Positions 9,280 to 34,900 of a stretch of DNA of 64,000 bases are shown in pieces (position 1 is the first letter of the stretch; every line of letters begins with the position of its first letter). This stretch comes from Azolla caroliniana. Its lineage: Eukaryota > Plantae > Polypodiophyta. Both the position numbers and the translations under genes were made by a program. The stretch spans positions 16,182,001-16,246,000 of the forward strand of contig JBHGNT010000008.1 of the NCBI GenBank assembly GCA_043228905.1, written 5' to 3'. Under the pieces are notes generated by a model that worked only from the letters and a program-made list of their open reading frames with translations, searched no databases and had not been told where the DNA came from.

Positions 9280-9971
9280 TGTTGGGTTTTTCGGTCCCTC
9301 CGGATGGGATGTCCGGAGATGAATGACGGCAGGCCTGGTTGCGGTTACGGAACCGGAGGATGAAGAGTACCCGGTTACGGAACCGGAGGATGAAGACCCC
9401 GGCTACGGAGCCGGATGACGAAGACCCGGCTACGGAGCCGGATGATGAAGACCCCGGCAACGGAGCCGGATGACGAGGACCCGGCTACGGGGCCGGATGA
9501 TGAAGACCCCGGTTACGGAGCCGGATGACGAAGTACCCGGAGAGAGAGATCCGGATGCGGAGACTATATTTGTAAATAGCCCGAAAGTCATATGTGTATA
9601 AATATGACTTAGGGCAAACAGTTTAGTTGTTGCTCATTTTCTGTTTTCCACTTAGAGAGAGTGAAGAGAGCAGCCGAGAGAGAGAGAGAGTGAGAGAAAG
9701 ACGAAGAGGTCGTTGCCTCTGTGTATTACCGCCGCCTGTGGCGAAGACAGTGAGCTCAAGGTTGTTGCCTTGTGGCTTCACCATTGTACATCTCTGTTCA
9801 TAGTGATAGTTGGAGTTTGAGGACTCCCGTGGTTTTTTCCCATTTAGGGTTTTCCACGTAAAACATCCTGTGTATTTTTCTCTCTATTGTCTTCGTGCAT
9901 TTTTTTTTGTATTTCCCGTTTTCTGGAGTTGGTCCTATTCCTCGATTGCGGCCGAGCACTGTTGTTCAACA
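9280..9971 (+). repeat. 5' LTR of Copia C
   Basis: TGTTG...CAACA termini; TATAAATA near 9597; GA-rich tract. Confidence 0.97.
9342..9540 (+). repeat. Seven 27-30-bp tandem units (CGGYTACGGARCCGGAKGAYGAAGACCC) in U3 of C LTR; repeated at 14148-14346
   Basis: Units read directly from the sequence. Confidence 0.92.
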
Positions 9972-10001
9972 AGTGGTATCAGAGCACGGTTAACACAGAA
10001 A

Positions 10002-13000
10002 ATGGAAGGCGGCGGTAGTGGGCCTCCGGGCATGATGGTGTTGAACTCACAGAACTACGCCGACTGGAAGATAAAGATGGAAGACCTTCTCATCGTCCGA
10101 GACCTGTACGAACCGATCGACAATGCCGAGATACCCAAGGGGGTAATAGAGTCGGAGTGGAAGCTCCTGAACCGGAAAGCCGTAGCGACGATCCGGCAAT
10201 ATGTAGATGTAAGTGTTCTGCAACATGTGGCGAACGACACCAACGCATATGAGATGTGGAAGAAGCTGTCGGGCCTCTACAAGAGGAAGAATGCGTTGAA
10301 CCGGACCTCCCTGATGAGGAAGATAGTGAACCTCAAGTACCGGGACGGCGAGAATATGGTGGAACACGTGAGCACGTTCATGGGATTCGTGAACCAGCTT
10401 ACGGCGATCAAGTTCCCGTTGGAGGATGCAATGCAAGCCATCATTCTGATGTGTACATTGCTGGAAAGCTGGGAGAACTTGGTGGTGACTCTCAGCACCT
10501 CCTGCACCGAAGATAACTTGTCTCTACAAACGGTAAAGACAAGCATTTTGAACGAAGAAGCGCGTCGGAGAGATAAAGAACCGGCCTCCGATCCGAAGAT
10601 GCTGCTTACCGAATCGGATCGGGGAAGACAATGGAACCGGAGTCCGCAAAGACGGGAGAAGTCGGGGACCCGGTCGCAGTCAAGAGGAAGACCCACATGC
10701 TTCCACTGTGGGAAGCCGGGGCACTTCCGGAAGAATTGTCGGCATTACCGAAAGGACAACGGAGCCGACGACACCGATTCGAAGAAGTCACCGGAGAGAA
10801 ACGGTGCATACCGGGGAGCCACGGACCGGAGAGGTCCGGATCGGCGAGGGCAGGACCGGAAAGGAACGACGGCACTCGCGGCAAGTGAAGAAGAGATAAT
10901 GCTCATTACCGAAGAGAGGGAGCTGAACCTTGCCGGTGTAGAGATGACCTGGGTGGTCGATTCCGGAGCGTCGTTCCACCTGACCCCGGATAAGAAATAC
11001 TTCTCATCCTACACAGCCGGTGAGCACGGCTGTGTCCGGATGGGAAATGAAGGCACATGTCGGATTGCCGGCATAGGAGACGTGTGGCTGATGACATCAA
11101 CCGGATGCAAGATGCTGCTGAAGGATGTACGACACGTTCCGGAGGTCCGATTGAACCTGATTTCGGCCGGGAGGCTAGACGATGAAGGCTACACGGGTAG
11201 CATACGGAACGGTGTCATGAAGTTCAGCAAAGGGAGCCTGATAGTGGCTCGGGCCCGGAAGGTCAACACACTGTACCTGATGAATTCCCGGCTATGTCCG
11301 GAGGAGCTGAACGTGGCAGCCGACACTGCCGGTGAGCTGTGGCACAAGAGACTGTGTCACATGAGTGAGAAGGGGATGAAGAGGCTTGCAGAAGACAACC
11401 TTATTCCAGTGAAGCATGTGCACCTGGAGAAGTGCACCGATTGCCTGGCCGGTAAACAGAACCGAACCTCCTTCCACTCAAGGCCACCGACGAGACGTAG
11501 TGTACCATTGGAGTTGGTACACACTGATGTGTGTCAGGTAGAAACGAAGTCACATGGCGGAGCCCAGTACTTCGTAACATTCATACATGACCATAGCCGG
11601 AAGCTGTGGACGGCACCGTTGAAGACAAAGGACCAAGTATTGTCCGTCTTCAAAGAACTCCACGCGAGAGTGGAAAGGGAATCCGGCAAGGAGCTGAAAG
11701 CGATACGAGCGGATAACGGAGGGGAATACCGGGGGCAGTTCGAGGAGTACTGTCGCTCGAAGGGAATCCGGCTCGAGTTTACTGTGCCGAAGACGCCGAA
11801 ACTGAACGGGCTGGCCGAGAGGATGAACCGGACCATAATGGAGAGGGTCCGGAGTATGCTGGCGCATGCGAAATTACCCAAGGGGTTTTGGGCTGAGGCA
11901 ATGTCGACGGCGACATACGTGATAAACAGATCACCCTCAGTACCTTTGGACGGAGACACGCCGCAGAGAGTGTGGACCGGTAGGGAAGTATCCTACCGGC
12001 ATCTGAAGGTGTTCGGGTGTCTCGCATACGTGCATGTGGCAAAGGACCGGAGAGGAAAGTTAGACCCAAAGACCCGGCCATGCATATTCCTCGGTTACGG
12101 CGACGACGAGTTCGGCTACCGAGTATGGGACCCGGTCGACAAGAAGATATTCAGGAGTCGAGATATCATCTTCATGGAGGACAAGACACTCGCCGACTGG
12201 GAGTCGGAGAAGAAGATGAAGAGCTCCAAGTCGACCGGTGAGGATCAACTCTACGAGGAGCAGTCCCGACCGACAAGGGACCGGTTAGCACTGGAGGATC
12301 CGGCCGAAGACGGTGAAGAAACAGAACCGGCCGAGGAAGATGAAACTGATACCGGAACCGGCCCCGATCCCGAAATGGATTCGGATGAAGAGGAAACGGA
12401 GGAGCCGGTTACCGAAGCTCCGGAATGGAGATATCCTCTAAGAGAGAGAAGGGCCCCCCGGAGATTTCCGGAACCAGAGCACGTGCTACTAACCGACGAG
12501 GGGGAGCCGGAGAGTTTTGAAGAAGCAAAGCTTGACACCCATAGCCGCAGGTGGTTAAGTGCCATGCAGGAGGAGATGGATTCCCTGCATGAGAACCACA
12601 CATATGAACTTGTGGAGTTGCCGAAAGGAAAGCGGGCACTTCGAAACAAGTGGGTGTTCAAGCTGAAACCGGGAGATGCCGGAAACCCCCCGAGATACAA
12701 AGCCAGGATCGTGGTGAAGGGGTTCCAGCAGAAGAAGGGCGTCGACTTCGACGAGATATTTGCCCCGGTAGTGAAGATGACCTCCATCCGGACGGTGCTG
12801 AGCATAGCGGCAAGCATGGACCTCGAGGTAGAACAGATGGACGTGAAGACGGCATTCCTTCACGGTGACCTCGAAGAAGAGATCTACATGCAGCAACCGG
12901 AAGGATTCGAGAAGAAAGGGAAGGAGCACCTGGTATGCCGGTTGAAGAAGAGCCTTTACGGTCTGAAGCAGGCTCCCCGGCAATGGTACCGGAAGTTCGA

Positions 13001-14075
13001 CTCCTTCATGACAGACGAAGGGTACCACAAAACGCAGTCCGATCACTGCGTGTTTGTGAAGAAGTTCGAAGGAGGAGACTTTCTAATACTCCTCCTGTAC
13101 GTGGACGACATGTTGATCGTCGGACGAGACCAGGTCAAGATACGGATGCTGAAGAAGGCTCTTCACCGAACCTTCTCAATGAAGGACCTGGGTCCGGCGA
13201 GGCAAATACTAGGGATGCACATCATCCGGGACCGGAAGAAGAAGCAGTTGTGGCTGTCACAGGAGAAGTACGTGACAAAGGTGCTTCACCGGTTCAACAT
13301 GTTGGAAGCAAGACCGGTCGGGTCAACACTCCCGGCAAACTGCAAGCTGTCCAGCAAGCAAAACCCCAAGACAAAGGCTGAGAAGGAGGACATGATGAAA
13401 GTACCATATGCCTCTGCCGTCGGGAGCTTGATGTACGCAATGGTGTGTACAAGACCGGACATAGGATATGCAGTTGGAGTGGTGAGCCGGTATATGAGTA
13501 ATCCCGGCAAGGAGCACTGGAACGCGGTCAAATGGATACTCCGATACTTAAAGGGCACTTCGAACATGTGCCTCCGATTCGGCTCCGGTAAACCCGAACT
13601 CGATGGATTTACCGATTCGGATATGTCGGCTGATGCGGATACCAGCCGGTCTACATCTGGGTATGTAATGACATATGCAGGGGGAGCCGTTTCGTGGCAG
13701 TCGAGGTTGCAGAAGACGGTTGCGTTGTCAACCACGGAGGCGGAGTACATGGCGGCTGTTGAAGCCGGCAAGGAAATAATATGGATGAAGGACTTCATTA
13801 GAGAGCTCGGTATCCGGCATGAGGAGTACCGACTCTACTGCGACAATCAGAGTGCCATCCACCTTGCGAAGAATGCGGCCTATCACTCCCGGACGAAGCA
13901 CATCCAGCGTAGATACCACTGGATCCGGGAAAGGATAGAAGACAAGGAGTTCGTGCTGACGAAGATCCACACGGACGAGAACGGGTCGGATATGCTGACC
14001 AAGGTACTTACACCCGACAAGCTGGAAGCATGCCGGAAGAGGATCGGATTGGAGAGACATCCCATGCCGAAGTGA
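10002..14075 (+). CDS. Copia gag-pol polyprotein (1357 aa)
   Basis: First ATG after the PBS. CFHCGKPGHFRKNC knuckle, WVVDSGAS protease, HKRLCH/CTDC, integrase VHTDV-RADNGGEY-NGLAERMN, RT QMDVKTAFL and LYVDD, RNase H FTDSD/RTKHI. Confidence 0.96.
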   Translation: MEGGGSGPPGMMVLNSQNYADWKIKMEDLLIVRDLYEPIDNAEIPKGVIESEWKLLNRKAVATIRQYVDVSVLQHVANDTNAYEMWKKLSGLYKRKNALNRTSLMRKIVNLKYRDGENMVEHVSTFMGFVNQLTAIKFPLEDAMQAIILMCTLLESWENLVVTLSTSCTEDNLSLQTVKTSILNEEARRRDKEPASDPKMLLTESDRGRQWNRSPQRREKSGTRSQSRGRPTCFHCGKPGHFRKNCRHYRKDNGADDTDSKKSPERNGAYRGATDRRGPDRRGQDRKGTTALAASEEEIMLITEERELNLAGVEMTWVVDSGASFHLTPDKKYFSSYTAGEHGCVRMGNEGTCRIAGIGDVWLMTSTGCKMLLKDVRHVPEVRLNLISAGRLDDEGYTGSIRNGVMKFSKGSLIVARARKVNTLYLMNSRLCPEELNVAADTAGELWHKRLCHMSEKGMKRLAEDNLIPVKHVHLEKCTDCLAGKQNRTSFHSRPPTRRSVPLELVHTDVCQVETKSHGGAQYFVTFIHDHSRKLWTAPLKTKDQVLSVFKELHARVERESGKELKAIRADNGGEYRGQFEEYCRSKGIRLEFTVPKTPKLNGLAERMNRTIMERVRSMLAHAKLPKGFWAEAMSTATYVINRSPSVPLDGDTPQRVWTGREVSYRHLKVFGCLAYVHVAKDRRGKLDPKTRPCIFLGYGDDEFGYRVWDPVDKKIFRSRDIIFMEDKTLADWESEKKMKSSKSTGEDQLYEEQSRPTRDRLALEDPAEDGEETEPAEEDETDTGTGPDPEMDSDEEETEEPVTEAPEWRYPLRERRAPRRFPEPEHVLLTDEGEPESFEEAKLDTHSRRWLSAMQEEMDSLHENHTYELVELPKGKRALRNKWVFKLKPGDAGNPPRYKARIVVKGFQQKKGVDFDEIFAPVVKMTSIRTVLSIAASMDLEVEQMDVKTAFLHGDLEEEIYMQQPEGFEKKGKEHLVCRLKKSLYGLKQAPRQWYRKFDSFMTDEGYHKTQSDHCVFVKKFEGGDFLILLLYVDDMLIVGRDQVKIRMLKKALHRTFSMKDLGPARQILGMHIIRDRKKKQLWLSQEKYVTKVLHRFNMLEARPVGSTLPANCKLSSKQNPKTKAEKEDMMKVPYASAVGSLMYAMVCTRPDIGYAVGVVSRYMSNPGKEHWNAVKWILRYLKGTSNMCLRFGSGKPELDGFTDSDMSADADTSRSTSGYVMTYAGGAVSWQSRLQKTVALSTTEAEYMAAVEAGKEIIWMKDFIRELGIRHEEYRLYCDNQSAIHLAKNAAYHSRTKHIQRRYHWIRERIEDKEFVLTKIHTDENGSDMLTKVLTPDKLEACRKRIGLERHPMPK

Positions 14076-14085
14076 AGGGGGAGTT

Positions 14086-14777
14086 TGTTGGGTTTTTCGG
14101 TCCCTCCGAATGGGATGTCCGGAGATGAATGACGGCAGGCCTGGTTGCGGTTACGGAACCGGAGGATGAAGAGTACCCGGTTACGGAACCGGAGGATGAA
14201 GACCCCGGCTACGGAGCCGGATGACGAAGACCCGGCTACGGAGCCGGATGATGAAGACCCCGGCAACGGAGCCGGATGACGAGGACCCGGCTACGGGGCC
14301 GGATGATGAAGACCCCGGTTACGGAGCCGGATGACGAAGTACCCGGAGAGAGAGATCCGGATGCGGAGACTATATTTGTAAATAGCCCGAAAGTCATATG
14401 TGTATAAATATGACTTAGGGCAAACAGTTTAGTTGTTGCTCATTTTCTGTTTTCCACTTAGAGAGAGTGAAGAGAGCAGCCGAGAGAGAGAGAGAGTGAG
14501 AGAAAGACGAAGAGGTCGTTGCCTCTGTGTATTACCGCCGCCTGTGGCGAAGACAGTGAGCTCAAGGTTGTTGCCTTGTGGCTTCACCATTGTACATCTC
14601 TGTTCATAGTGATAGTTGGAGTTTGAGGACTCCCGTGGTTTTTTCCCATTTAGGGTTTTCCACGTAAAACATCCTGTGTATTTTTCTCTCTATTGTCTTC
14701 GTGCATTTTTTTTTGTATTTCCCGTTTTCTGGAGTTGGTCCTATTCCTCGGTTGCGGCCGAGCACTGTTGTTCAACA
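14086..14777 (+). repeat. 3' LTR of Copia C
   Basis: Same length as the 5' LTR; preceded by PPT. Confidence 0.97.
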
Positions 14778-18960: not shown

Positions 18961-19975
18961 AGTAGGAAGGTCCGTTATGCAATGATTGGCAGAGATTGGG
19001 CATCCTTGACAAGGTGCTTGATACCTTTTGGAAGGTTCTCTGGCATTTCCACAAGCTTGAGAAGATCAAGCAATTTTGGTGGCAAATCGGCCATTAATGT
19101 GGTCCCTTTTGGCAAATGATAGGTAAAGGAGGATGCTCAATAGCTTGCCCACCTTGTTTTGCACCTATCGAGACTCTGAAACACTATTTGTGGGATTGCC
19201 CTCAAGCTCAAAGGGTGTGGGAAACGAGTGACACACCTCCTAACTGCTACCAAAGTGAATGGGACAACATCGTGGAGTACAGTGGCCTAGATCAATCTCT
19301 CGGTTGATAGCTGGACAGACACCTTCAACGCAGGCTACTGGTGCTATGAATGCATGTCAAGAGGTAAATTGGTCAAGACCCGATTTAAGAGAGGCTTGAA
19401 GATTGCATCCCCTCGTTTCCGAGAGATTTGGATGTTGATTGCAAGCTTCACCCTTTAGTATATGTGGAAAGTACGTTGCCTAAAGGTCTTCCAAGATCTC
19501 GTACACCCCTTGGAGGAATTGATCATGGATGTTTGGTTCGCGGTTATCAGTTGCCTATGAGGGCAGTTGGACGAGGTTTGCGACCACTCCGATGAGGTGA
19601 TCACTGCCCACTTACACTTTTGGCAGAAATTGAGGAACACGTTGATGGTGACGCAAGGAGGAAACAGTCCGTGGTGGAACCACCAACCCCCACGCTGGTT
19701 GTTTCTTAATCTCCTCCCACCCTCCCTACATTGAAGGTTAGAGGATCGGGCTCTTGTTGGGCGGCGATGATTATCACTAATTTATAGCTCTAGGTACCTA
19801 CTTACATCAAGTAGAAAGTATAAGAGGATATGTACGCAGCCTCATATTCTTGAACTCGGTCAGGGGGTGATTCCCCGATTTATATATGAACCACCTTGTA
19901 TAGTCTTTTTGTAAAAATCTCTCCTAACTAATGGGAAAGTAGCTCCTTTTTTGGGAAAAGAAAAAGAATAAAGAA
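18961..19975 (+). mobile_element. 5'-truncated L1-type LINE (ORF2 zinc-finger/C-terminus, 3' UTR, A-rich tail)
   Basis: ETLKHYLWDCPQAQRVW and WNHQPPRWLF-type motifs homologous to the end of the ORF2 at 49634-53977. A-rich tail ~19955-19975. Degraded GAGCTA(T/C)AAAA TSD candidate. Confidence 0.8.
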
Positions 19976-22072: not shown

Positions 22073-24537
22073 AAAAGTATTTGTGGGGGTCTACCCTTTC
22101 TATTATTTTTTTCTAGAGTGAGATTTAAAGTCTTTCATGGGGTAAGGCTCCTATCTATCAAAGGTGTCGAAAAATAAATGTGAATTCCACCACCTTTTGT
22201 AGACGACATTGGAACTCCTAGCTATATAACAAACGAGATTCGTTTCTTTTTACTAATTATACAACACTATTAATTGATACTTCGACAAAAGGAAAAGGTT
22301 TTTATAGTGATGTCATTGGATTAAATTCACAAATACCACATACAATTGTTATGTTTGGGATTATCATGTGTACTGATAAAAAGGGCTTGAGTGAACATGA
22401 AGATATAGACGCCATCTTCTTTGAGTCTATAGTTGCAAATTGACAACAAATGCCATCTCTATCACCCACTCCTTATCGCTATTAAGGTAAATGTGACAGT
22501 AAAACACAAGAAGAAAAAATAAACATTTACAAAGAGGAGCCTCCAAGCAATATATATGTCAAAAGGTAATCAAGAAGCACACAAGTTGGTAAAATCCATA
22601 ATATTCTGACTTTTATTGAAAAACAACAACAAGACGGACATGACTCTTTCATTGATCAATGTGACGATGCAAGCAAATTTTGGGTGCAAAGAAATAGTGA
22701 ATCACGAAATAACCTAATTCAAGAATGGGAGATAGATATCTCAAGACAAGTTGTCCCCCATGTTCAAATTTTGAAATTTTATATCCCTTGGCGACAAACC
22801 ACAAGTGGATGTGTGCAAAAACTAAAACAGTAGCAAGGTATTGAACAAAAATGCAATGAAACCAAAGAGACATTAAGCTCTTAGACTATGTTGATACCAT
22901 GTAATGGAAACTAAAGACATATGTTTATTCCTATGATTCCTCATGAATCAAAGAAATGGATATTATCTATCCAAATCGACATCTCCAATGGAAAAGAGCT
23001 GCCAAAACTTGTACAAGAAAGAGATTCTGAATCTTATCATTGGAATCAACTAGAATAGTCGCAAGAATGAGTCCCCAGTAATGATTGGTGCTAACACATT
23101 GAAAAGAACCTTGTCACCAAATAAGAAAGCAGTGGTAAGACCAAGAATGATGTACAAGACTCTCATGAGAAAAAGAATATAGTCACAACGCAATGAGTTT
23201 ACCTCTTCCACAAGAAACCTACAAGATCAATATAATGCACTTTAAACGGGGAAACGATGACATTAATGGGGATTTTGATTGACGAACATATGTGAACATA
23301 TGTTCAATCCTTATATACCCACTTCAATGAGGCCCAAATACAAGCCATAACCTCAAGGAAGTCATGGATGGCCAATGCTTTGTTGCTAACATAGCCTAGG
23401 AGGCTTGCTTCATATAATAATTAGGAATTAGCAATGGCTCAACTCAAGCCTAAACCAAACCATTAAACCATTTTTTAAACAGTTCGGTTGTTCGGTTTGG
23501 TTTAGTTTAGGGTTCAGTTTCCTTAACCGATGTGAGCTCTGTTTGGGATTGCTCAAATTGATTACCAAGTTATTTAATGCTTAATTGGCTTGGTTTAACT
23601 GGTGTGGCGATTCCAAATAATGGTAACAAAAATTGGATCAAACTCATCTAAAATTGTAGACACAAGAATATGGGTTCTACCTTACTATCATAGTGGCACT
23701 ACATTCACAAAACTCTCCCAATGGTAAAGCTCAAACCATAACTTTCCAAACAAATATTGTAGCTTGTAGCATGAATCGAGAATACCAACATATTATGGTC
23801 AAATGAGAGCACCAAATAATTGCCTTGAGAAAACCTCATACATATATAACTCTTTCTTCCATCCACTTATGTTTTTCAATTAACTTGTGATAAGCAGCAT
23901 TTGTTGATATCATAGTCAATCAAGTTCTTCACATCCACCATCGAATCAAGAATTGGGTCATGCGGCAACACTAATCCGTGCAACTTATCCCAAATAATCT
24001 ACCTTTGATCACATCCACTTATCCTTTCAACACAACCTCAACCAAACCCAATCCTTAGATTAATTTCTCTCACTATCACAATGTTCACACTTAATTACAA
24101 CATTCATTACTAAAGTTCTTGAACATCAAGAGTGACTTCTAACTTTCACGTGTATTACACGTAAATATTATATTCCTAGTCTCAAATGGTGCAATCATGG
24201 AAACAATATTTAGTATATAAACATAGTAACATGATAAAAGAGCCACTAACCAAGTTGACTTCAGAATGAAATACTCCATAACATATTTCCTCATTGCCCT
24301 CTAGGTGAAAATGGGAGAGAGTTATTCAAGGGAGAAACGTTTTTAATTGTTACTTTGTGGATTTCCAAGAAAATCGTCCAATAGAATGCCATGAATGGAA
24401 CTAATACCAAACTGTGGTGTTTGCAATTATCAGCTACCTATGAGGGCAGTTTGACGAGGTTGGCAGCCACTCCAACCACGTGGTCATTGCCCGCGTATAC
24501 TTTTGGCAAAAATGGAGGAACACATTGATGCTGACGC

Positions 24538-25406
24538 TGTCGTAGTGTAGGTTGCACACTATGTGGAAATTATATTTTTGTCCCTCCGGATAGAGAATGG
24601 AGTGCTCGGTGAGAACCGGAAGAAAACGGCATACCGGCAAGGAGGAAAACGGCATACCGTCAAGGAGGAAAACGGCATACCGGCAAGGAAGAAAACGGCA
24701 TACCGGCAAGGAGGAAAACGGCATACCGACAAGGAAGAAAACGGCATACCGGCAAATGTAAAAAGAAAGAGACATAAATGTAAAAAGAAAGGAAATACTC
24801 ACTACTGCGCAGGGCGTGATTCGAACTCTGCACCTCCACGTTGACAAACCCCAACCTTACCATTACATTAACTTATCTTAAGTGTTTTAAATATAGATTT
24901 AATACGTATAAGACTTTTATTTATGCATACCTTTATTAAAAGGTAAATCGTGTATTTCTTTTAATATATGAAAAAGAAAAACGCGAGACACTAAAAATAA
25001 CTCATGCACATCTAGCGTGCATGAGCCCTATACTTAGGAAATAAAAAAGCAACACATGCACATTTAGTGTGCATGAACATATGAGAAAAAGCATGTAGCT
25101 ACGCTTAGTCTCTCCCATCACTATATAAGGATGGGGAGCACATTGTAGTGGTTGTTGATTTTTTTGGATTAAGAATTAATCAATACAAAAATTATTCGTG
25201 GGATTCACGATTTATACATCTACTTCTCTCTTAACACCCTAAGTACCAATTAATATAGTATACTCGTGTGATTCACGAGTTTCTTATCTTTCTCTTTGCT
25301 ATTTACTCATAATTAATCTCTATCTCACGAACTTCTTTCTCCTAGTCCAAGACCTCTGTGGTTCCCACCCGACTCACGCAACGATCCGGAGCCGAAAGGC
25401 ACGACA
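24538..25406 (+). repeat. 5' LTR of Gypsy D
   Basis: Matches 31074-31942 (offset 6536). Confidence 0.97.
24618..24755 (+). repeat. Six 23-bp tandem units GGARGAAAACGGCATACCGDCAA in D LTR (also 31154-31291)
   Basis: Units read directly from the sequence. Confidence 0.95.
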
Positions 25407-25410
25407 CAGT

Positions 25411-25428
25411 TGGTGAACCCGACGTGAA
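25411..25428 (+). promoter_or_regulatory. Primer-binding site complementary to tRNA-Trp
   Basis: TGGTGAACCCGACGTGAA is the reverse complement of the plant cytosolic tRNA-Trp 3' end (...TTCACGTCGGGTTCACCA, recalled). Confidence 0.88.
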
Positions 25429-25444
25429 AACGGGTGGCAAGGAG

Positions 25445-27484
25445 ATGGAGGCTCAACAAGCTAACAATATGATGGCGATGTTCGAACGGATGCTTCAAGA
25501 ACAACGCACGATGTCGGAGATTTCGGCATCAGTAGAGCGGCTCGTGCAACGGAACGGGCAATTTAATGGTAAGGATGTGTCGCGATATTTGCAGGACTAC
25601 AAGGCGGAGATGCTCCGGTGCCGGGCTTCGGAAGGACTGCAAGTGACATCCTTTAACCGGGTGGCGACCGACGGGCTTCAATGGAGTATCCACGGGTTGC
25701 AACAACAAAATCCGACGTGGGAAGCATTCGAAGAGGCGTTAAAGACCACGTTTGCCATCGAGGACTCCTCCAAGGCAACGCGGAGGGGATTCGAGGATTG
25801 GGTGGAAACGTCAGGTAAGGGGCTGAAGGTCCTCGAAGTGTTTTCGACATTCGAAAGTCGGTTCGGGAGGTTGTCCGCGAAAGATCAAACTATTCTTGCA
25901 CCGGACAAAGTCATCATGTTTTTGCGAGCTGTGGACGTCCGGGACCGGAAAGATCTCGGAGTGCTTCTTGAGGACACGACCACCGAAAGTGGCCTCACCG
26001 AAACATGGGAAAGCGTGCGGGATATCGTCGCGCGGTACACGAAGAGGGGGCAATGGCTTGCCAACGAAGAAAAGAGGGTTTCGGAACCGATTCCGAAACC
26101 GAGAACGGGACTGGAAGACCATCAACCGAGGGCTCGGGAGATTACGGCCGAGAAGGGAGTCGACGCGTCTACGGTGGAGCAGCTGCTGAAGGAGATGGAG
26201 AATCTAAAGATCGCGATGGTGAAGAAGTCGGATGACCGCCCCACAAGCTCCAAATATACGGATCGACGGTGCATATGGTGCGATAGCGCCGAACACGATC
26301 GGAGGGATTGCGACGACCATAAGGAGGCGCTACGACGGGATCTCATCTACTACGAGGGAAACCGGATTCATTCGATGGATTCTCGGAAGCCACTCCGACC
26401 GAACTTCCGGAAAGGCGGCATGAAGAAGGTGCTCGAGGAGGAGTTAGCGGCAAGAAGCAACTATGCGACAACCGCGGGAATATGTGTCGGGGAGTCAACG
26501 GGAGCGAAGGCGTCTTTCTGGCCGGAGGTGCTAAGAAACACCGAGAAAACCGACTCCAACGATATCCGAAACACCGCGGAAGGCGTCCGGGAAGCTACGG
26601 GATGGGAGTGCCCTGTCGACAAGAATAGCATATACGCCCTTTGTCAATTACATGAGGTGTATGTGGACGAGAAACGACGGCGCACGGAGGATGCGGCCGG
26701 ACCATCGAAGATACCGGAAAGCTGGAACTCCGGAGGAAAGGTAAAAGAGAAGGCGACTCCGGCATTCAAGCTCGCCTCGGACATAGAACAACAAACCGAC
26801 TTGAAAAGAGTGTTCGAGGAAAGAATCTTGGATAGCCGGGTAGATTTTTCGCTGCGGGAACTACTCGGAATAGCGAAGAAGGAGTTTCACGATCTTCTTG
26901 TGGATCTCGTAAAAAGGAAGAGACAAAGTACGGAGGAAAATGCTCCAAGGGTGAATGCAAATACCGTTTCAATGAACGACACCGAAGTGGAAGGCGAAAT
27001 TCCGAACTCCCACTATACAAGGCCACACTGGGCACGTGCGACTACGGAGACTCCGGTCCGAATCGGCAACATCAAAGAACCCGTGCTAGCATTGATTGAT
27101 CACGGATCGGAGATCAACTTGATGTCCAAGGAGTTCTACCGAAAGGGGAAGTGGCCTATAAACACCAACCATGGATGGAAGATTCGGGCAGCCACGAAAA
27201 CGACAGAAGACTTATTTGCGGCTTGTCCGGATGTGACGGTAAAGATCGGGGATGTCGAAATTGACCAAAATTTCTTTGTGCAGGATGAGGTTTCACATTC
27301 TGTCATCCTCGGCCAACCCTTTATCACGGCTTCACGGATGGAGACGAAGGTGCTCGATAGTGGTGCGGCTTTTGCGCGAATTCGGAGCCAAAACGGAGGG
27401 AAATCCGTCCAATTCCTAACGGTGCCGGCAAATCACGAAAGGAACAAGAGGGAACTCTTGTCCCAAGTGAGAATGGATTTTTAA
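25445..27484 (+). CDS. Gypsy D ORF1: Gag + zinc knuckle + aspartic protease (679 aa)
   Basis: First ATG after the PBS. CIWCDSAEHDRRDC knuckle; ALIDHGSEINLM and VILGQPF protease motifs. Confidence 0.92.
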   Translation: MEAQQANNMMAMFERMLQEQRTMSEISASVERLVQRNGQFNGKDVSRYLQDYKAEMLRCRASEGLQVTSFNRVATDGLQWSIHGLQQQNPTWEAFEEALKTTFAIEDSSKATRRGFEDWVETSGKGLKVLEVFSTFESRFGRLSAKDQTILAPDKVIMFLRAVDVRDRKDLGVLLEDTTTESGLTETWESVRDIVARYTKRGQWLANEEKRVSEPIPKPRTGLEDHQPRAREITAEKGVDASTVEQLLKEMENLKIAMVKKSDDRPTSSKYTDRRCIWCDSAEHDRRDCDDHKEALRRDLIYYEGNRIHSMDSRKPLRPNFRKGGMKKVLEEELAARSNYATTAGICVGESTGAKASFWPEVLRNTEKTDSNDIRNTAEGVREATGWECPVDKNSIYALCQLHEVYVDEKRRRTEDAAGPSKIPESWNSGGKVKEKATPAFKLASDIEQQTDLKRVFEERILDSRVDFSLRELLGIAKKEFHDLLVDLVKRKRQSTEENAPRVNANTVSMNDTEVEGEIPNSHYTRPHWARATTETPVRIGNIKEPVLALIDHGSEINLMSKEFYRKGKWPINTNHGWKIRAATKTTEDLFAACPDVTVKIGDVEIDQNFFVQDEVSHSVILGQPFITASRMETKVLDSGAAFARIRSQNGGKSVQFLTVPANHERNKRELLSQVRMDF

Positions 27485-27538
27485 AGCGGACTGTTGCGGA
27501 GTGGGGAAGTGATAGTCCGAGAAGCCCTGATACCCCAC
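27475..27538 (+). promoter_or_regulatory. Predicted -1 ribosomal frameshift signal (G_GAU_UUU + H-type pseudoknot)
   Basis: Heptamer 27475-27481 in correct phase just before the ORF1 stop. Stem 1 27487-27497/27509-27519; stem 2 GTGGGG 27501-27506/CCCCAC 27533-27538. Confidence 0.82.
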
Positions 27539-30500
27539 ACAGGAAGAAACCTCTCGGAGCAAAACAAGTACGAATCGGCCCGGATGGGGCATCTACGTAC
27601 ACGGCCGTAACCGGAGGAATGAAGAAACAATACCGACAAGTGGAGGATAAGTTACGGTCGGCATCAATAATAAAAGAGGACGAAGAAATCGTGGGAGTGA
27701 TCGAGGAAGTGTTCTATGGGAATACACTACAACGGCTTGAAGAGCTTGCGGAAGATAAAAGCCAAGGGAACCGGGTAGTCCCGGTGGAATCGGTCGAGAT
27801 GTACGAGATCGTTGCGAAAATGGGGCCGGATGCGCTCCGCAAAGAAGAAGCAATGGTAAGTACGAAATACAAGACCGTGGAGAAGAAGGTGAAACCGGCC
27901 GCGGGACCACTACCCGCCGATAGCGAACAAAAGAAGAAAGAAGTCTCGGGAGATCCGACACTTCGGAAGTCCGTGGATATCGGACATGCCTTCACAGACG
28001 AGACCCGGAAGAAACTTCGGATCGGTGGAGGTGGGTTCCTCTTACAAGAAGAAGAAAAACGGTTTCGAGAGATGTTGGAGCAACATGGCAAAGCATTCGC
28101 GTTCACATCGAGGGAGATCGGATGCATTAATCCAAAGATAGTGGAGCCGATGGTGATTTTCACGATTGATCATGTACCGTGGAACTTGAAGCCGATTCCG
28201 GTGCCACGGGCGCATATTCCGAAAGTCATCGACTTGCTCAAGGAGAAGGTGGCGATGGGGATTCTAGAGCCATCAAGTGCTCCGTACTCAAATCGATGGT
28301 TTACGGTTCCGAAGAAGAATGGGTCACTCCGATTCATCCAAGACTTGCAACCGGTGAACAAGGTCACGATCCGGAACTCGGGAGTCGGTCCGATAGTGGA
28401 CGAATTCGCGGAAGCTTTTGCCGGACGTGCGATATACTCCATCGGGGACCTATACTCGGGGTATGATCAATTCCAACTAGCCGTGGAGAGCCGAGACATC
28501 ACTACCATGCGGACACCGATAGGACTAGTTCGAATGTGCACACTACCACAAGGAGCGACAAACTCGGTTGCACATATGATGAACGCGATGAACAAGGTGC
28601 TTCGAGATTGCATCCCGGAGATAACGATGCCGTTTCTAGATGACATTCCGATGAAAGGATGCGCGGTGGAAGCAAAAGATGAGACTATGGATGATCGGGG
28701 ATGCCGAAAGTTCGTGGTCGACCATATTCATGATTGCGAGAAAGTGTTACGAAAACTAGAAGATGTGCACCTAACACTTTCCGGGGAGAAATCGGCATTC
28801 GGGCAAGAAGAAATATTGGTGGTCGGACATCTATGTGGACCCTACGGCCGAAGACCGTCACCAACAAAGATCGATGCGATTCAAGCTATGAAGGAAGTAT
28901 GTGAGTCAACATCGGAAGTCCGAAGGTTTCTGGGTGCGTGTGCATTCTATCACATATGGATTCCGCACTATGCACATATAGCGGACCCGCTCTATCACTT
29001 GTTGCGGAAAGGTAAGAAATTCGAGTGGAAACCGGAACACACTAAAGCCATGAGGAAGCTCAAGAAGACACTATGGAGGGCGGAATCACTTAGGAAGCCA
29101 AGCTACGAGCGGCCAATCATAGTAACGGTTGATACAAGTCCAACCGGTATCGGGTGGGTCATCAATCAAGCCGAATCGGATGGTTCGCGGTATCCGATCC
29201 GATTTGGAGCAAAGGTCCTCAACGAAAGGCAACGCGGATATGCACAAGTCAAAAGAGAATTGTGGGGAGTCGTGTCGGCGATAAAATCGGATCGGGATTA
29301 TTTGATCGGAGCTGAAGTGGTGATCGAGACGGATTGTCTTCCGATACTCGGGATGATGCGGTGTTGTACGATACCGGATGTGGCTATGCTAAGGTGGATT
29401 GCATATGTCAAGTCACTTAATCCGGAGGTTCGACACATCTCGGGGAAGGACAACGCGGTAGCAGACATGTTATCGAGGGCGCGGTTTGAAGACGACATAA
29501 CCGAATCAGATAATGAAGAAGTTTCCGAAGACTACTTCACGTCAGAACACATATGCCGAGTGAACGTGATCCGAGAATTCCGGGAAGAAGAATACGAGGG
29601 GGAAACCTTGATGATCGGGAAGATGCTACAAGAGGTCGAGGATTCAACCAATGATAAAGAAAGGAGAGCCGAGATCCGAAGGAAGAAGAGGCAAGTCCAA
29701 AAGTTCTTCTTGGAAAACGGTTTAATATGGAGGACGCCGAAAAGACCGGATGGGATACCACTTCGAGTAGTCGGGACGAAAGAGCAACGAAACCGGATAA
29801 TGTCCGAGTTCCACGAATCCGATTGGGCTGGACATCGAGGAACATGGGCAACTTTTGTGAAAATCAAGCAAAGATATTGGTGGAAGAACATGTATAAAGA
29901 TGTCGCGGAGTTCACAGAAAGCTGCGAGAAATGTCAAGTCTACTCCGGGGTCCGACACCGAGATGAGCTGCATCCGACATTCTCACCGACAATCAACTTC
30001 AAGTGGATGGTCGACATTGTAGCTATGCCGACCGGGATTGGACAAAAGAAATACTTGGTGTTAGCTCGAGAAGATCTCACAAACCAAGTTGAAGGTCGAG
30101 CGCTTCGGAGGAAAACGTGTGCCGCGGTGTGCCAATTTCTTTTGGAAGAAGTGTTTTGTAGGTACGGCTGCGTAGGACAAGTGATTGCGGACCGGGGAGA
30201 ACTCGACTCGGACAAAGCTAGGGGATTCTTCGCCAAACATGGAGTTCGGTTAACGTTGACAACGGCCTACAATCCGGAGGCCAACGGGAAGATCGAACGA
30301 GGACATAGTCCGATCGTGAAAGCACTTGCGAAGGCATGCGACGGAAGGGTGAAGGATTGGCCACAAATGCTTCCGTATGCACTATGGGCGGATCGGACGA
30401 CGCATAGCTCCGTGACCGGTTACATGCCGGCAGAACTCATGACCGGACAAGCACCGGTAATGCCAACGGAAACCGCAATCGCGACATGGACAATACTACC

Positions 30501-31086
30501 GTGGAAGGAAGAGATGAGCCGGGAAGAACTACTAGCGGTCCGGATACGACAACTGGAGGGAAGACCGAAAGATGTAGCGGAAGCGTCACGCCGACAACAA
30601 GAAGCACGGTTCCGGAACAAAAGCCGGTTCGACACAAAGCACCGACTACGACCGAGGAGGATTGAAGAAGGAGATTGGGTGATCGTATATGATAGTAGCT
30701 TGGACCATCAGCATACAACGATGCGGAAATTCGCGAAAAGGTGGTTCGGGCCGTACGAGGTTCGGAAGGTCTTCGACAACGGGACGTACCGACTGTCCGA
30801 GTTGGATGGAACAATACTACGAGTGCCTATAGCCGGGAAGCGGGTGAAGATTTTCAAGAAGCGGACCGACGACAAACCTTATGTGATCCAAGTCGAGGCC
30901 GACAACGAGGAGCAATCGGACGAAGACCACAATGATGCGGGAAGCGAAGAAAGTGGATTACAACTCATAGTCGACATAAGGGGAGAATCGGAGGAAGCTT
31001 CGGATGAAGACGGATACGAAGAATCAAGAACTTCGGCACATACCGGAGGATGTGCGGGTTTGGAGGGGGCGAGTGTCGTAGTGTAG
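27481..31086 (+). CDS. Gypsy D ORF2: RT-RNase H-integrase, -1 frame relative to ORF1 (first ATG 27619)
   Basis: Frame open from 27361. YSNRWFTVPKKNGSLRFIQDLQ, LPQG, PFLDD (RT); VDTSP, ETDC, ADMLSR (RH); H..GH..CEKC, VDI/ADRGE/KIER, GPY (INT). No chromodomain; stop inside the 3' LTR. Confidence 0.95.
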   Translation, partial: LKRTVAEWGSDSPRSPDTPHRKKPLGAKQVRIGPDGASTYTAVTGGMKKQYRQVEDKLRSASIIKEDEEIVGVIEEVFYGNTLQRLEELAEDKSQGNRVVPVESVEMYEIVAKMGPDALRKEEAMVSTKYKTVEKKVKPAAGPLPADSEQKKKEVSGDPTLRKSVDIGHAFTDETRKKLRIGGGGFLLQEEEKRFREMLEQHGKAFAFTSREIGCINPKIVEPMVIFTIDHVPWNLKPIPVPRAHIPKVIDLLKEKVAMGILEPSSAPYSNRWFTVPKKNGSLRFIQDLQPVNKVTIRNSGVGPIVDEFAEAFAGRAIYSIGDLYSGYDQFQLAVESRDITTMRTPIGLVRMCTLPQGATNSVAHMMNAMNKVLRDCIPEITMPFLDDIPMKGCAVEAKDETMDDRGCRKFVVDHIHDCEKVLRKLEDVHLTLSGEKSAFGQEEILVVGHLCGPYGRRPSPTKIDAIQAMKEVCESTSEVRRFLGACAFYHIWIPHYAHIADPLYHLLRKGKKFEWKPEHTKAMRKLKKTLWRAESLRKPSYERPIIVTVDTSPTGIGWVINQAESDGSRYPIRFGAKVLNERQRGYAQVKRELWGVVSAIKSDRDYLIGAEVVIETDCLPILGMMRCCTIPDVAMLRWIAYVKSLNPEVRHISGKDNAVADMLSRARFEDDITESDNEEVSEDYFTSEHICRVNVIREFREEEYEGETLMIGKMLQEVEDSTNDKERRAEIRRKKRQVQKFFLENGLIWRTPKRPDGIPLRVVGTKEQRNRIMSEFHESDWAGHRGTWATFVKIKQRYWWKNMYKDVAEFTESCEKCQVYSGVRHRDELHPTFSPTINFKWMVDIVAMPTGIGQKKYLVLAREDLTNQVEGRALRRKTCAAVCQFLLEEVFCRYGCVGQVIADRGELDSDKARGFFAKHGVRLTLTTAYNPEANGKIERGHSPIVKALAKACDGRVKDWPQMLPYALWADRTTHSSVTGYMPAELMTGQAPVMPTETAIATWTILPWKEEMSREELLAVRIRQLEGRPKDVAEASRRQQEARFRNKSRFDTKHRLRPRRIEEGDWVIVYDSSLDHQHTTMRKFAKRWFGPYEVRKVFDNGTYRLSELDGTILRVPIAGKRVKIFKKRTDDKPYVIQVEADNEEQSDEDHNDAGSEESGLQLIVDIRGESEEASDEDGYEESRTSAHTGGCAGLEGASVVV

Positions 31087-31942
31087 GTTGCACACTATGT
31101 GGAAATTATATTTTTGTCCCTCCGGATAGAGAATGGAGTGCTCGGTGAGAACCGGAAGAAAACGGCATACCGGCAAGGAGGAAAACGGCATACCGTCAAG
31201 GAGGAAAACGGCATACCGGCAAGGAAGAAAACGGCATACCGGCAAGGAGGAAAACGGCATACCGACAAGGAAGAAAACGGCATACCGGCAAATGTAAAAA
31301 GAAAGAGACATAAATGTAAAAAGAAAGGAAATACTCACTACTGCGCAGGGCGTGATTCGAACTCTGCACCTCCACGTTGACAAACCCCAACCTTACCATT
31401 ACATTAACTTATCTTAAGTGTTTTAAATATAGATTTAATACGTATAAGACTTTTATTTATGCATACCTTTATTAAAAGGTAAATCGTGTATTTCTTTTAA
31501 TATATGAAAAAGAAAAACGCGAGACACTAAAAATAACTCATGCACATCTAGCGTGCATGAGCCCTATACTTAGGAAATAAAAAAGCAACACATGCACATT
31601 TAGTGTGCATGAACATATGAGAAAAAGCATGTAGCTACGCTTAGTCTCTCCCATCACTATATAAGGATGGGGAGCACATTGTAGTGGTTGTTGATTTTTT
31701 TGGATTAAGAATTAATCAATACAAAAATTATTCGTGGGATTCACGATTTATACATCTACTTCTCTCTTAACACCCTAAGTACCAATTAATATAGTATACT
31801 CGTGTGATTCACGAGTTTCTTATCTTTCTCTTTGCTATTTACTCATAATTAATCTCTATCTCACGAACTTCTTTCTCCTAGTCCAAGACCTCTGTGGTTC
31901 CCACCCGACTCACGCAACGATCCGGAGCCGAAAGGCACGACA
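31074..31942 (+). repeat. 3' LTR of Gypsy D
   Basis: Follows the PPT and matches the 5' LTR. Confidence 0.97.
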
Positions 31943-34900
31943 ACGCGAGGAAACGACCCGAGGTGGAACTACCAAGCCCCACGTTGGTTGTTTCCTACTC
32001 ACCTCCCACCCTCCCACTGTTGAAGGCCAAAGGATCAGGCTCGTGTTGGCCGGCTATGATTGTCACTAGTTTATAGCTCTAGATACCTACTTAAGTAGAA
32101 AGTATGAGAGGATACGTACGTAGTCTCATAGTCTTGAACTCAATCGGGGGGTGGTTCCTTGATTTATATACAAGCCATCTTGTATAGTCTTTCTGTAAAA
32201 ATCTCTCCTAACTAGTGGGGAAGTAGCTCCATTTTTGGAGAAAAAAAAAATTCTAAGCTGTAGTGATGCATTGTTAGAAGCAAATTGTCAAATAATGTTG
32301 GAATCAATCTCGGTGTAAAGCTAGGTTTGGGTCCCTATCACCTACTTTGGTTTATTTGGCCTATCATTTATCTCATAAATGTTAGCACACCCCTTTCCGT
32401 CATTTCAACATTCATTATCAATTCACCTCATCACATCATATGTTATTCCCTAGAATCATATCAAAGCATATTTGGTATTGTTTCAATAAATATCATCTAA
32501 GACTTAAGTATGCACAATATGAAACCCATTCATACTAGCTAGGTGTGTATTAAACTTACACCCAAGACTTGTCAAGTCTCTAGAATAAAAGGAAAATTTG
32601 GAAAAATCTTCACAATGGTCAATATCTAGACCATTAAAATTTCAGTCACTCTTAATTAGTAATTAATGCAATAACTTATCATTATAAAACGATAGTGCAA
32701 ACCAAATCCATATTTATTACAAATGTTTTTTCTCGGCGACATTATGTATTTTCATAATACAAGCAATAATTGGAAAGCTAGGATCAATAACCTTTAAAAA
32801 TATGTTGTCCTGACTCCTACTCATTGTGCTAAAGAAAAAAAAAAAATCTAAATAGAGCTGAATATCAACGAGTCAAAAGGAACTTAGCAATATCTTTGCA
32901 CTAAACTTGTTGTCAAAATCAACCACCTCTTTTACTTGTGGTGCTTTCAAACATAGATATGTTGATTAACCTTCTCTTTAACAATGTTCATGTATCTCTT
33001 CTTAAGAAATGGTTCCATCATTACTATGATACAGAACCAAAAATATATATATACATAAATTAAGCACTTGCTTAAAATATGACCATAAGAAGTAGAATTT
33101 GAAATTGCACATTGTACTAATATGATGAGTAGTTCAACCCATCCGGTCATCCCTATGTTGTTTTAATCTCAATCTCTCTATTTCTTGATCTGTAATATCA
33201 TAATCATAACTCTCCCATAAGAATTCTAAATCAAGTCAAGTAAATGCTTTAAAATATCACAAATTGTATCCTATACAAGTCAAGCAAACCAAACCTTTAA
33301 CTTTATTCTTCAAACAACTAAAAATTCTATACTTCATGAGTATTTATAGATTAAAACAACATATTTCAGCTGCGTTTTTTAAATATAGAGTCTCTACTTG
33401 GCATAGAGTGATCTTAAGGAATGGATGTGAACCCTTTTGTTAAACCTCTCACATTAGTAGAGGAAATTCTATTGTATTGTTTTTTTTTTAATTCTATGGG
33501 TTATATTATGGTTTCCGTAGGATGTTAAAATATCATCTCTCTCTCCATTAAAAGCTAGTTGCTCGTAGCTAGAAAGTCCACACCGCTTGCCCTCTTAGAG
33601 ACGCATGCTCAAGTTATATTTGCACTTTTGGAGATAAGATATAATATTCTTTCACTTCAAGATGTGTCATGTTTATGTACTCACAAATGACCTTGTGGTC
33701 CAAACAAGTTTATTACAATAAAGTGAGGACTATGGCTTACTCAACAACCTTTCTTTCTCCATCTCTCTCAAAATTAACCTTTACATTTAATGTCAGGTTG
33801 AATGTGACTTAACATGATGCAAAGATTGGGATAAAGGGTTCGGAGAGTCGAGACATTAGAGAAATGGGCTCATTAGCATTCTAGGGAGATTGAGACATAC
33901 AAGAGAAAAAGCATGTCATACAACCACTAGGGGGGTTGAATGAAAGTGTGAGAGAGGCAAAATAATGGAAGTGGAGAGGATTCCCCACTAGCACTATTGG
34001 ATGTATGAAAGGTTAAAATATGTCCATGGACATTTAAAAAGGTTTAACCATTTTAGGAGAGTTATTTTTCTTTGAGAATCTCTTAAATTTCTAGATATAT
34101 TTCACCTTCTTTTTTGTCGGTTTTTAACATTTCCAAGCAAACTAATGATTTCCTTTTGTCATAAGATGCCAACCTTCATTGCTTTTATTTACAAACCTTT
34201 TTTGTATTGTCTATGGTAAAGGGGTTTCTCATTGTTCATGTAATTGCTTGTCCCTCGATATTCCGCAAAGCCTATGCAACTAGACTATCGCTACACAAAA
34301 TACTCACATAAAGGGATTTGTGCTTTGCTTGTATAGCTCCAACAATGCTAAATGCAAGCTGAGCAGAATAAAATGAATTAAAAGGATATAAGACACACAT
34401 GGGTTAGTAACAATGTAGACTCAAAAAACCACATAATTCCAAAACCATAACTTTATTCACATGAAACATATGTAATTTGCACTAGTATTGTGCAATGTAC
34501 CCCCACATAAAATATCTTTAGCACCCGCCGACAAAATTTTGGCTCAAAAATACCATATAACTTAGTAAGGCTTTGGCATATGTTCCTTACGAGATCCATG
34601 CCATGCCATGCTAGCATTTAGGTTTTTTATATATGTATATTTCATTTTGTAATCTAAAATCAATTTATGACATTGCAGCCCAATTGTTCGAATTTTAACC
34701 AATCTAGCATGTTTATTCCCTTATTGCAAATCAATTTCTACATACTTGGGTTTTGTTAGTATGAAAAGAATCTAACGAATTGGATAATTATATAACATTT
34801 TCACATTCATATCATAAATGTATTTCCTATTTCTTTTCTCTTTGATGGCCCTATTTTTTTTCACAGTATTTAGTTCTTCTCTTTCATTAATGCTGGTAAA

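Follow-up and report, generated by a model that had tools for sequence, protein, structure and literature searches.

Stimulation of -1 ribosomal frameshifting by a pseudoknot is textbook knowledge for retroviruses and is common in animal LTR elements. In Rous sarcoma virus the protease is located within Gag, and tRNA-Trp serves as primer. Much less of this kind has been described for plants: a survey from 2003, as reported in PMC5009743, found only two types of plant elements with split gag and pol, both with a +1 shift (here and below, statements are taken from excerpts of the papers cited). A separation of Gag-protease from reverse transcriptase (RT) is already known in plants from Ogre elements, where it is achieved by splicing (PMC6317226). 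The same excerpts describe the Phygy lineage of REXdb, with a 4-bp target duplication of the type NCGN, priming by tRNA-Trp in 81% and no extra domains. Shifts by two bases are also on record. The arterivirus PRRSV shifts by -2 at GG_GUU_UUU, and shorter spacers favor -2 (PMC4937337); with pseudoknots, -2 shifting is optimal at a spacer 1-2 nt shorter (PMC3458567). In the literature searched, with figures, supplements, Repbase and subscription papers beyond its scope, there was no description of a frameshift signal between protease and RT in plant retrotransposons, and the excerpts of PMC7466625, PMC2864245 and PMC6786969 do not mention frameshifting.

Here we analyze a Gypsy element in a stretch of 64,000 nucleotides from the fern Azolla caroliniana (in the following, the window). 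We consider it highly probable that the polymerase of this element is expressed by a programmed -1 ribosomal frameshift between protease and RT, at the heptamer G_GAU_UUU followed by a predicted H-type pseudoknot. This reading is based on anatomy, reading frames, conservation, covariation and the coding constraint on the linker, and the steps of the mechanism are inferred from these.

Anatomy of the element

The features of the element, all on the plus strand, are the following.

24534-24537, plus strand: left target-site duplication ACGC (NCGN type), same four bases at 31943-31946
24538-25406, plus strand: 5' LTR, 869 bp, TG...CA, identical to the 3' LTR
25411-25426, plus strand: primer-binding site, putative tRNA-Trp, found unchanged or with one base altered in 41 of 81 sequences
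25445-27484, plus strand: ORF1, 679 aa, Gag (CCHC knuckle, DUF4100) and aspartic protease, ending MDF-stop
27361-31086, plus strand: ORF2 in the -1 frame, linker of ~127 codons, RT, RNase H and integrase, no chromodomain; entry predicted at the heptamer
27475-27481, plus strand: slippery heptamer G_GAU_UUU in the phase of ORF1 (GGATTTT)
27482-27486, plus strand: spacer, its first 3 nt being the ORF1 stop TAA (27482-27484)
27487-27519, plus strand: predicted pseudoknot stem 1, CGGACTGTTGC (27487-27497) with GTGATAGTCCG (27509-27519)
27501-27538, plus strand: predicted pseudoknot stem 2, GTGGGG (27501-27506) with CCCCAC (27533-27538), loop 3 of 13 nt
31062-31073, plus strand: polypurine tract
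31074-31942, plus strand: 3' LTR, 869 bp
31943-31946, plus strand: right target-site duplication ACGC

The two LTRs are identical over 869 bp and are flanked by ACGC on both sides, which indicates a very recent insertion. As in Phygy, the duplication is of the 4-bp NCGN type, and a chromodomain, an extra RNase H and an extra ORF are lacking, with RT, RT-RNase H and integrase as the only Pfam domains of ORF2. The coding region fills the interior, ORF1 and ORF2 spanning 25445-31086 of 25407-31073. The primer-binding site begins with TGG and is putatively that of tRNA-Trp. Close or named homologs of the element proteins come from Physcomitrium, Riccia, Adiantum and Calypogeia. Judged by this anatomy, the element is an intact Ty3/Gypsy retrotransposon of the Phygy type, a lineage that an earlier note on this DNA had missed, as it had missed the fern host and the sub-group in the -2 frame described below.

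The protease domain of ORF1 gave a weak Pfam match (E 0.004, below the Pfam cut-off). At about 27095-27115, its catalytic motif is D-H-G-S in place of D-T/S-G, without variation among 60 aligned homologs. An exact look-up of the proteins of the window gave no match, and relatives of the element were absent from the viral contigs and prokaryote genome contigs searched. A scan against Rfam returned two weak DicF matches in the LTRs (E 4.7) and none at the ORF1/ORF2 junction. The LTR interior, at about 24620-24755 and in the 3' LTR copy, carries a short tandem array with units of ~23 nt. An older direct repeat (82-86%) is found at 19536-19965, 24419-24537 and 31947-32249; one copy of it appears to have been the insertion target, and the repeat is likely the LTR of an older element.

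Besides this element, the window holds an intact Copia element at 9280-14385, with a single ORF of 1421 aa and terminal repeats that are 100% identical over the 300 bases compared, and an intact LINE-type ORF at 49634-53977 (1447 aa, endonuclease, RT and zinc domain). A gene for phenylalanine ammonia-lyase (PAL) occupies 37214-39553 on the minus strand in one open frame. Its protein is 88% identical to that of Ceratopteris and 87% to that of Adiantum, and at most 73% to named seed-plant and moss proteins among the matches listed, which by itself makes a fern host likely. PAL is well expressed in a related species, as judged by poly(A) RNA-seq.

Reading frames and slip site among relatives

The earlier note had proposed the frameshift from the layout of the junction, and the layout was reproduced exactly to the base, including the heptamer, the TAA, both stems and loops of 3, 2 and 13 nt. 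ORF1 ends in ATG GAT TTT TAA as claimed, and the frame of RT, RNase H and integrase is indeed -1 and free of stops over 27361-31086. The fusion of Gag-PR-Pol, given there as ~1880 aa, follows by arithmetic (679 + 1201 = 1880 aa). A viral precedent that it had named for G_GAU_UUU is borne out by PMC5009743, in excerpts of which the heptamer is the site of PEMV and G_GA is a tolerated first triplet in umbraviruses and dianthoviruses.

For comparison, the best 80 of 176 metagenome matches were used, of which 77 reach the ORF1 stop and 61 have RT on the contig. Nearly all of these loci come from one series of assemblies and hence sample families rather than many hosts. A classical -1 signal has a heptamer X_XXY_YYZ in the phase of the 0 frame; G_GA is a non-canonical first triplet that is tolerated. 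Conservation of the heptamer across copies, which the earlier note had named as a check, was found in 71 of the 77 loci that reach the ORF1 stop, all with the heptamer in frame and 65 of them with G_GAU_UUY. The individual variants are GGATTTT (59 loci), GGATTTC (6), GGTTTTT (3), GGGTTTT (2) and GGTTTTC (1), so that the departures from GGATTTT are themselves slippery. Six loci lack an in-frame heptamer, and two of these, L064 and L066, carry it out of frame.

The frame of pol relative to the protease is -1 in 58 of the 61 loci with RT, +1 in three and identical in none. From the heptamer to RT this frame is open in 60 loci and broken in one, L032. In eight loci the pol frame has a stop one codon 5' of the heptamer. 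There, the two ORFs overlap by 13 nt, little besides the heptamer itself, and the change of frame must be confined to this overlap. Copies with one continuous ORF, which the earlier note would have counted against its reading, were not seen among the 61 loci with DNA, whereas a distant decayed protein, P0219, does join protease to RT. P0219 is a single protein; it lacks the Gag start, has protease and RT in one frame and runs out of frame in the integrase, and it may be a decayed copy or represent a single-ORF branch. Eleven longer fused homologs were rejected as evidence for a single ORF, all being gene models from Riccia or Physcomitrium, with a locatable junction in 6 of 11.

The same site can be followed in proteins. 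Of 220 ORF1 homologs, the best 120 were compared: 70 terminate in DF-stop, in 22 the DF lies five residues from the end, and 16 have no DF-type motif in the last 12 residues. In each of the 70 DF-stop homologs, DF is preceded by a residue that a codon with final G can encode, compared to an upstream background of 74% (P about 6e-10, the rows not being independent), as is required by G_GAU_UUU. In a search with 50% representatives the motif was missing from 20 of 45 classifiable ends, and many of these 20 look truncated, out of frame or joined by gene models.

A stop codon follows the heptamer directly in 61 of the 71 loci, with TAA, TAG and TGA all occurring, and an AUG precedes RT in every representative. 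Both facts would suit a pol that is reached by termination and reinitiation, or by internal initiation at a downstream AUG, with the fold serving initiation or packaging. We regard this as very unlikely, since the first AUG is found anywhere between codons 3 and 111, and the one in the window, at 27619, is not kept in close copies (L002; T>G at 27620). Moreover, the pol frame is already open and set to -1 before any AUG occurs, in keeping with a classical -1 signal, where the downstream ORF is open and has no conserved start. A free Pol would also lack the link to Gag that is normally needed to package it.

In most families, the adjacent stop further provides a fifth U, and in PEMV a nearby stop is needed for the shift (PMC5009743, in excerpt). 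The -1 frame might consequently arise by slippage of a single peptidyl-tRNA-Phe on U_UUU with the stop in the A site, or by slippage of RNA polymerase on the run of U. Single-tRNA slippage has no need of the G_GA triplet and its slippery variants, yet these are conserved, and in nine intact loci the stop lies 1 or 5 codons beyond the heptamer. In six families (L050, L051, L062, L063, L071 and L076) ORF1 continues five codons past the heptamer and ends inside stem 1; by comparison of these sequences, the adjacent stop is dispensable. Polymerase slippage, in turn, would have to act on a U run only 4-6 long that is broken in the families with G_GAU_UUC, and it does not call for a structure at ribosome spacing. 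Slippage of either type is therefore most improbable, and the conserved heptamer is better read as the site of a -1 frameshift with two tRNAs re-pairing.

The linker between heptamer and RT measures 118-155 codons and contains no stop in the pol frame in 32 of 32 representatives, compared to 3-24 stops in the other frames. Pooled over 14 pairs in the pol frame, pS and pN are 0.17 and 0.15 in the cassette, 0.40 and 0.21 in the linker, and 0.50 and 0.09 in RT-RH-IN. Synonymous change is suppressed in the cassette compared to the linker and RT-RH-IN, which points to a constraint on the RNA and not on the peptide. The linker itself behaves as coding sequence under constraint rather than as an intron.

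These data bear directly on splicing. In Ogre the same division into Gag-PR and RT-RH-IN is bridged by an intron (PMC6317226, in excerpt), and removal of the junction by splicing could likewise give access to pol of the present element. In the window, a donor-like AA/GTGAGA lies 8 nt 5' of the heptamer, but the relatives do not have it in common: between -60 and +30, a donor-like motif is missing from 18 of 32 representatives, and in the others such motifs are scattered. Likewise, where the Ogre type has a non-coding gap and a conserved donor, one ORF here overlaps the other, and the linker has no stop and a pN lower than its pS. Gene models from Riccia and Physcomitrium do yield fused proteins; in those with a locatable junction, however, the cassette-encoded peptide is missing and the length of the junction varies, which is what predicted introns bridging a frameshift would produce. 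An intron would also leave the slippery heptamer and the covarying pseudoknot unexplained. On these grounds, splicing is an extremely unlikely route. Three poly(A) RNA-seq runs from a related species (PAL identity mostly 90-95%) had a depth below 1 on the junction bin, with no joint seen at the junction and one read pair crossing it unspliced; coverage this low says little about splicing either way. If pol is instead entered by frameshifting, this suggests that fused gene models of mosses and liverworts in the databases contain false introns.

The predicted pseudoknot

In the window, stem 1 is the minimum-energy fold (-18.9 kcal/mol). Compared to shuffled sequences, stem 1 alone reaches a modest to borderline z of -1.79, with 11 of 200 shuffles as good, and the fold of 141 nt around the site is not significant (z -0.49). 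On these models, thermodynamics alone gives no support for a structure at the junction. The pseudoknot including stem 2 has a score of 41 in our own scoring, which was reached by 0 of 100 dinucleotide shuffles and at 10 of 18,266 sampled positions of the window. It ranks first among the 625 slippery-like heptamers of the window.

Stem covariation across relatives, also named as a check in the earlier note, was observed in both stems, in stem 2 less cleanly on a fixed alignment. For this analysis we aligned 34 hand-picked representatives of 54 distinct junctions, having dropped near-duplicates and four short or decayed sequences. The protease identity among the 34 is 41-97%, with a median of 57%. 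Over stem 1 the alignment is free of internal gaps and was thus not fitted to the structure. In stem 1, 83% of the cells are paired, compared to 27-45% in slid registers. Two-sided changes occur in 9 of the 11 pairs, with 44 such cells against 18.9 in shuffled data. Mapped on the protease tree, stem 1 accumulated 9.9 pair-preserving double changes on single branches, whereas eight slid registers gave at most 1.1. Only 12 of the 34 sequences form the outermost pair, and the conserved part starts 6 nt 3' of the heptamer.

With a floating register, stem 2 scores 16.1 with its own partner and 13.4 with swapped partners, the own-partner value being reached in 0 of 10,000 permutations, kinship being ignored; windows further downstream score 7.1-9.3. 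The pairing is kept through swaps of the sequence such as GCGAGA:TCTCGC, CAAGG:CCTTG and ATGAGGGT:ACCCTCAT. On the fixed alignment the signal is less clean, as the length of loop 3 ranges over 10-17 nt: 131 of 500 shuffles reached the number of covarying pairs, and a slide by +2 scores nearly the same. In some families stem 2 has only 4-5 bp, and in L076 no such pseudoknot fold was found.

Near-identical copies from other runs show four variant sites in the 64-nt cassette (40 of 41 rows listed), namely the stop TAA changed to TAG, one base of the spacer, a U-G pair that becomes U-A and one base of a loop. By these listed sites, the heptamer is untouched and no pair is broken. Where a classical -1 signal has its structure 5-9 nt downstream of the heptamer, a covarying predicted pseudoknot is found here after a spacer of 5-6 nt. 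Just 5' of the slip site, at 27441-27464, there is a further predicted hairpin that recalls the 5' stem-loop of luteoviruses and dianthoviruses.

Taken together, the interpretation of the earlier note, a frameshift between protease and RT, is supported. According to this interpretation, most ribosomes would stop at the UAA directly 3' of the heptamer and release the 679-aa Gag-protease. A minority would pause at the pseudoknot 5-6 nt downstream of the heptamer and slip back by one base, with tRNA-Asp moving from GAU to GGA and tRNA-Phe from UUU to UUU, to make the 1880-aa Gag-PR-linker-RT-RH-IN. The protease would thereby be made at the level of the capsid, with Gag-protease in excess, and only RT and integrase would be rationed. 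The adjacent stop may assist the shift, as in PEMV, and would not be essential, given the nine intact loci in which it comes later. If this holds true, a conserved -1 signal adds ribosomal frameshifting to the biology of plant retrotransposons, at the unusual place after the protease, and the family offers dozens of natural pseudoknot variants for plant ribosomes.

A candidate -2 branch and comparison with known systems

Two loci, L048 (2835-2906) and L053 (2497-2568), carry a different site, AG_GTT_TTT, and both read CAG GTT TTT (G/T)AC TAG. The spacer before the conserved stem is one base shorter, and a strong pseudoknot is kept. The two are sisters (100/100) inside a tree that is otherwise -1. 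Their -1 frame meets a stop within 1 and 5 codons, respectively, while the +1/-2 frame, which encodes RT, RNase H and integrase and brings back the register of the family peptide, runs without a stop for 1154 and 1101 codons. A comparison of L048 with L053 gives dN/dS of 0.15/0.85 for the linker and 0.093/1.23 for RT-RH-IN, indicating that the frame offset is old and selected and not a fresh lesion. Proteins ending in QVFD (six listed proteins of one cluster) and in QVFY (two of another) argue against an assembly slip. A distant liverwort homolog, P0284 (CAM6118263.1, Calypogeia fissa), ends in KVFY-stop like L053 and, from this end, is possibly a further element of the -2 type.

As in the arterivirus type of -2 shift, L048 and L053 have G_GUU_UUU and an essential ORF in the -2 frame; the C-rich CCCANCUCC that arteriviruses have ~10 nt downstream in place of an RNA structure is not found, and the pseudoknot of the family occupies this position. 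A +1 shift could give access to the same frame, but no shared re-pairing was seen for it. From the two DNA loci, a -2 shift driven by the predicted pseudoknot is probably used. In this branch, one base of the spacer would have been lost and the site changed to AG_GUU_UUU, with the same pseudoknot retained. On balance, we lean toward the wider view that a lineage of Gypsy elements in seed-free plants rations its polymerase by a pseudoknot-driven frameshift between protease and RT, and that one branch of it switched from -1 to -2.

If true, L048 and L053 would represent a natural pseudoknot-driven -2 shift that is needed for an essential polymerase, and a natural -1/-2 pair would test the mRNA-tension model of frameshift direction. 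In the literature searched, the effect of the spacer on -1/-2 direction comes from engineered spacers only. Compared with their -1 relatives, the two loci are a ready-made experiment on how spacer length sets this direction.

With PRRSV and its relatives, in the nsp2TF shift at GG_GUU_UUU, the -2 branch shares the G_GUU_UUU core and access to the -2 frame; in the arteriviruses the shift depends on a protein complex at a C-rich motif and not on an RNA structure, where L048 and L053 have a predicted pseudoknot (PMC4937337, in excerpt). Spacer-dependent -2 shifting is also favored by a shorter spacer, as is found in both loci, but the structure-driven case in the excerpts of PMC3458567 is a U6A reporter and the two loci are natural.

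As for the -1 signal, umbraviruses and dianthoviruses (PEMV RNA2, RCNMV) have the same heptamer, a nearby stop in the 0 frame and plant ribosomes as their host machinery. Their structure is a bulged stem-loop with a long-range partner (PMC5009743, in excerpt), in contrast to the local H-type pseudoknot predicted here. The alpharetrovirus Rous sarcoma virus resembles the element in a -1 shift with a pseudoknot as stimulator (same excerpts). Its protease likewise lies upstream of the shift and its RT-IN downstream. The element differs in having no env, another heptamer, a compact pseudoknot of 52 nt and a linker of ~125 codons before RT, and the resemblance of a plant Ty3/Gypsy element to an alpharetrovirus is most likely convergent.

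Among plant elements, Ogre and Bianca also have two ORFs, and in Ogre the split is likewise between Gag-PR and RT-RH-IN. Their ORFs are separated by gaps of ~274 and 172 bp, with an intron in Ogre (PMC6317226, in excerpt), whereas the present element has overlapping ORFs and a coding linker. With Phygy, the element shares the 4-bp NCGN duplication, a putative tRNA-Trp site, the lack of a chromodomain, a filled interior and close homologs in Physcomitrium. At 7.4 kb, it is just under the 7.66-9.97 kb listed for Phygy, which is defined in these excerpts from Physcomitrium only and with its ORF organization given as 'ND' (PMC6317226). In contrast, the present element resides in a fern, has homologs in Riccia, Calypogeia and Adiantum, and combines a fixed layout of two ORFs with a putative recoding signal.
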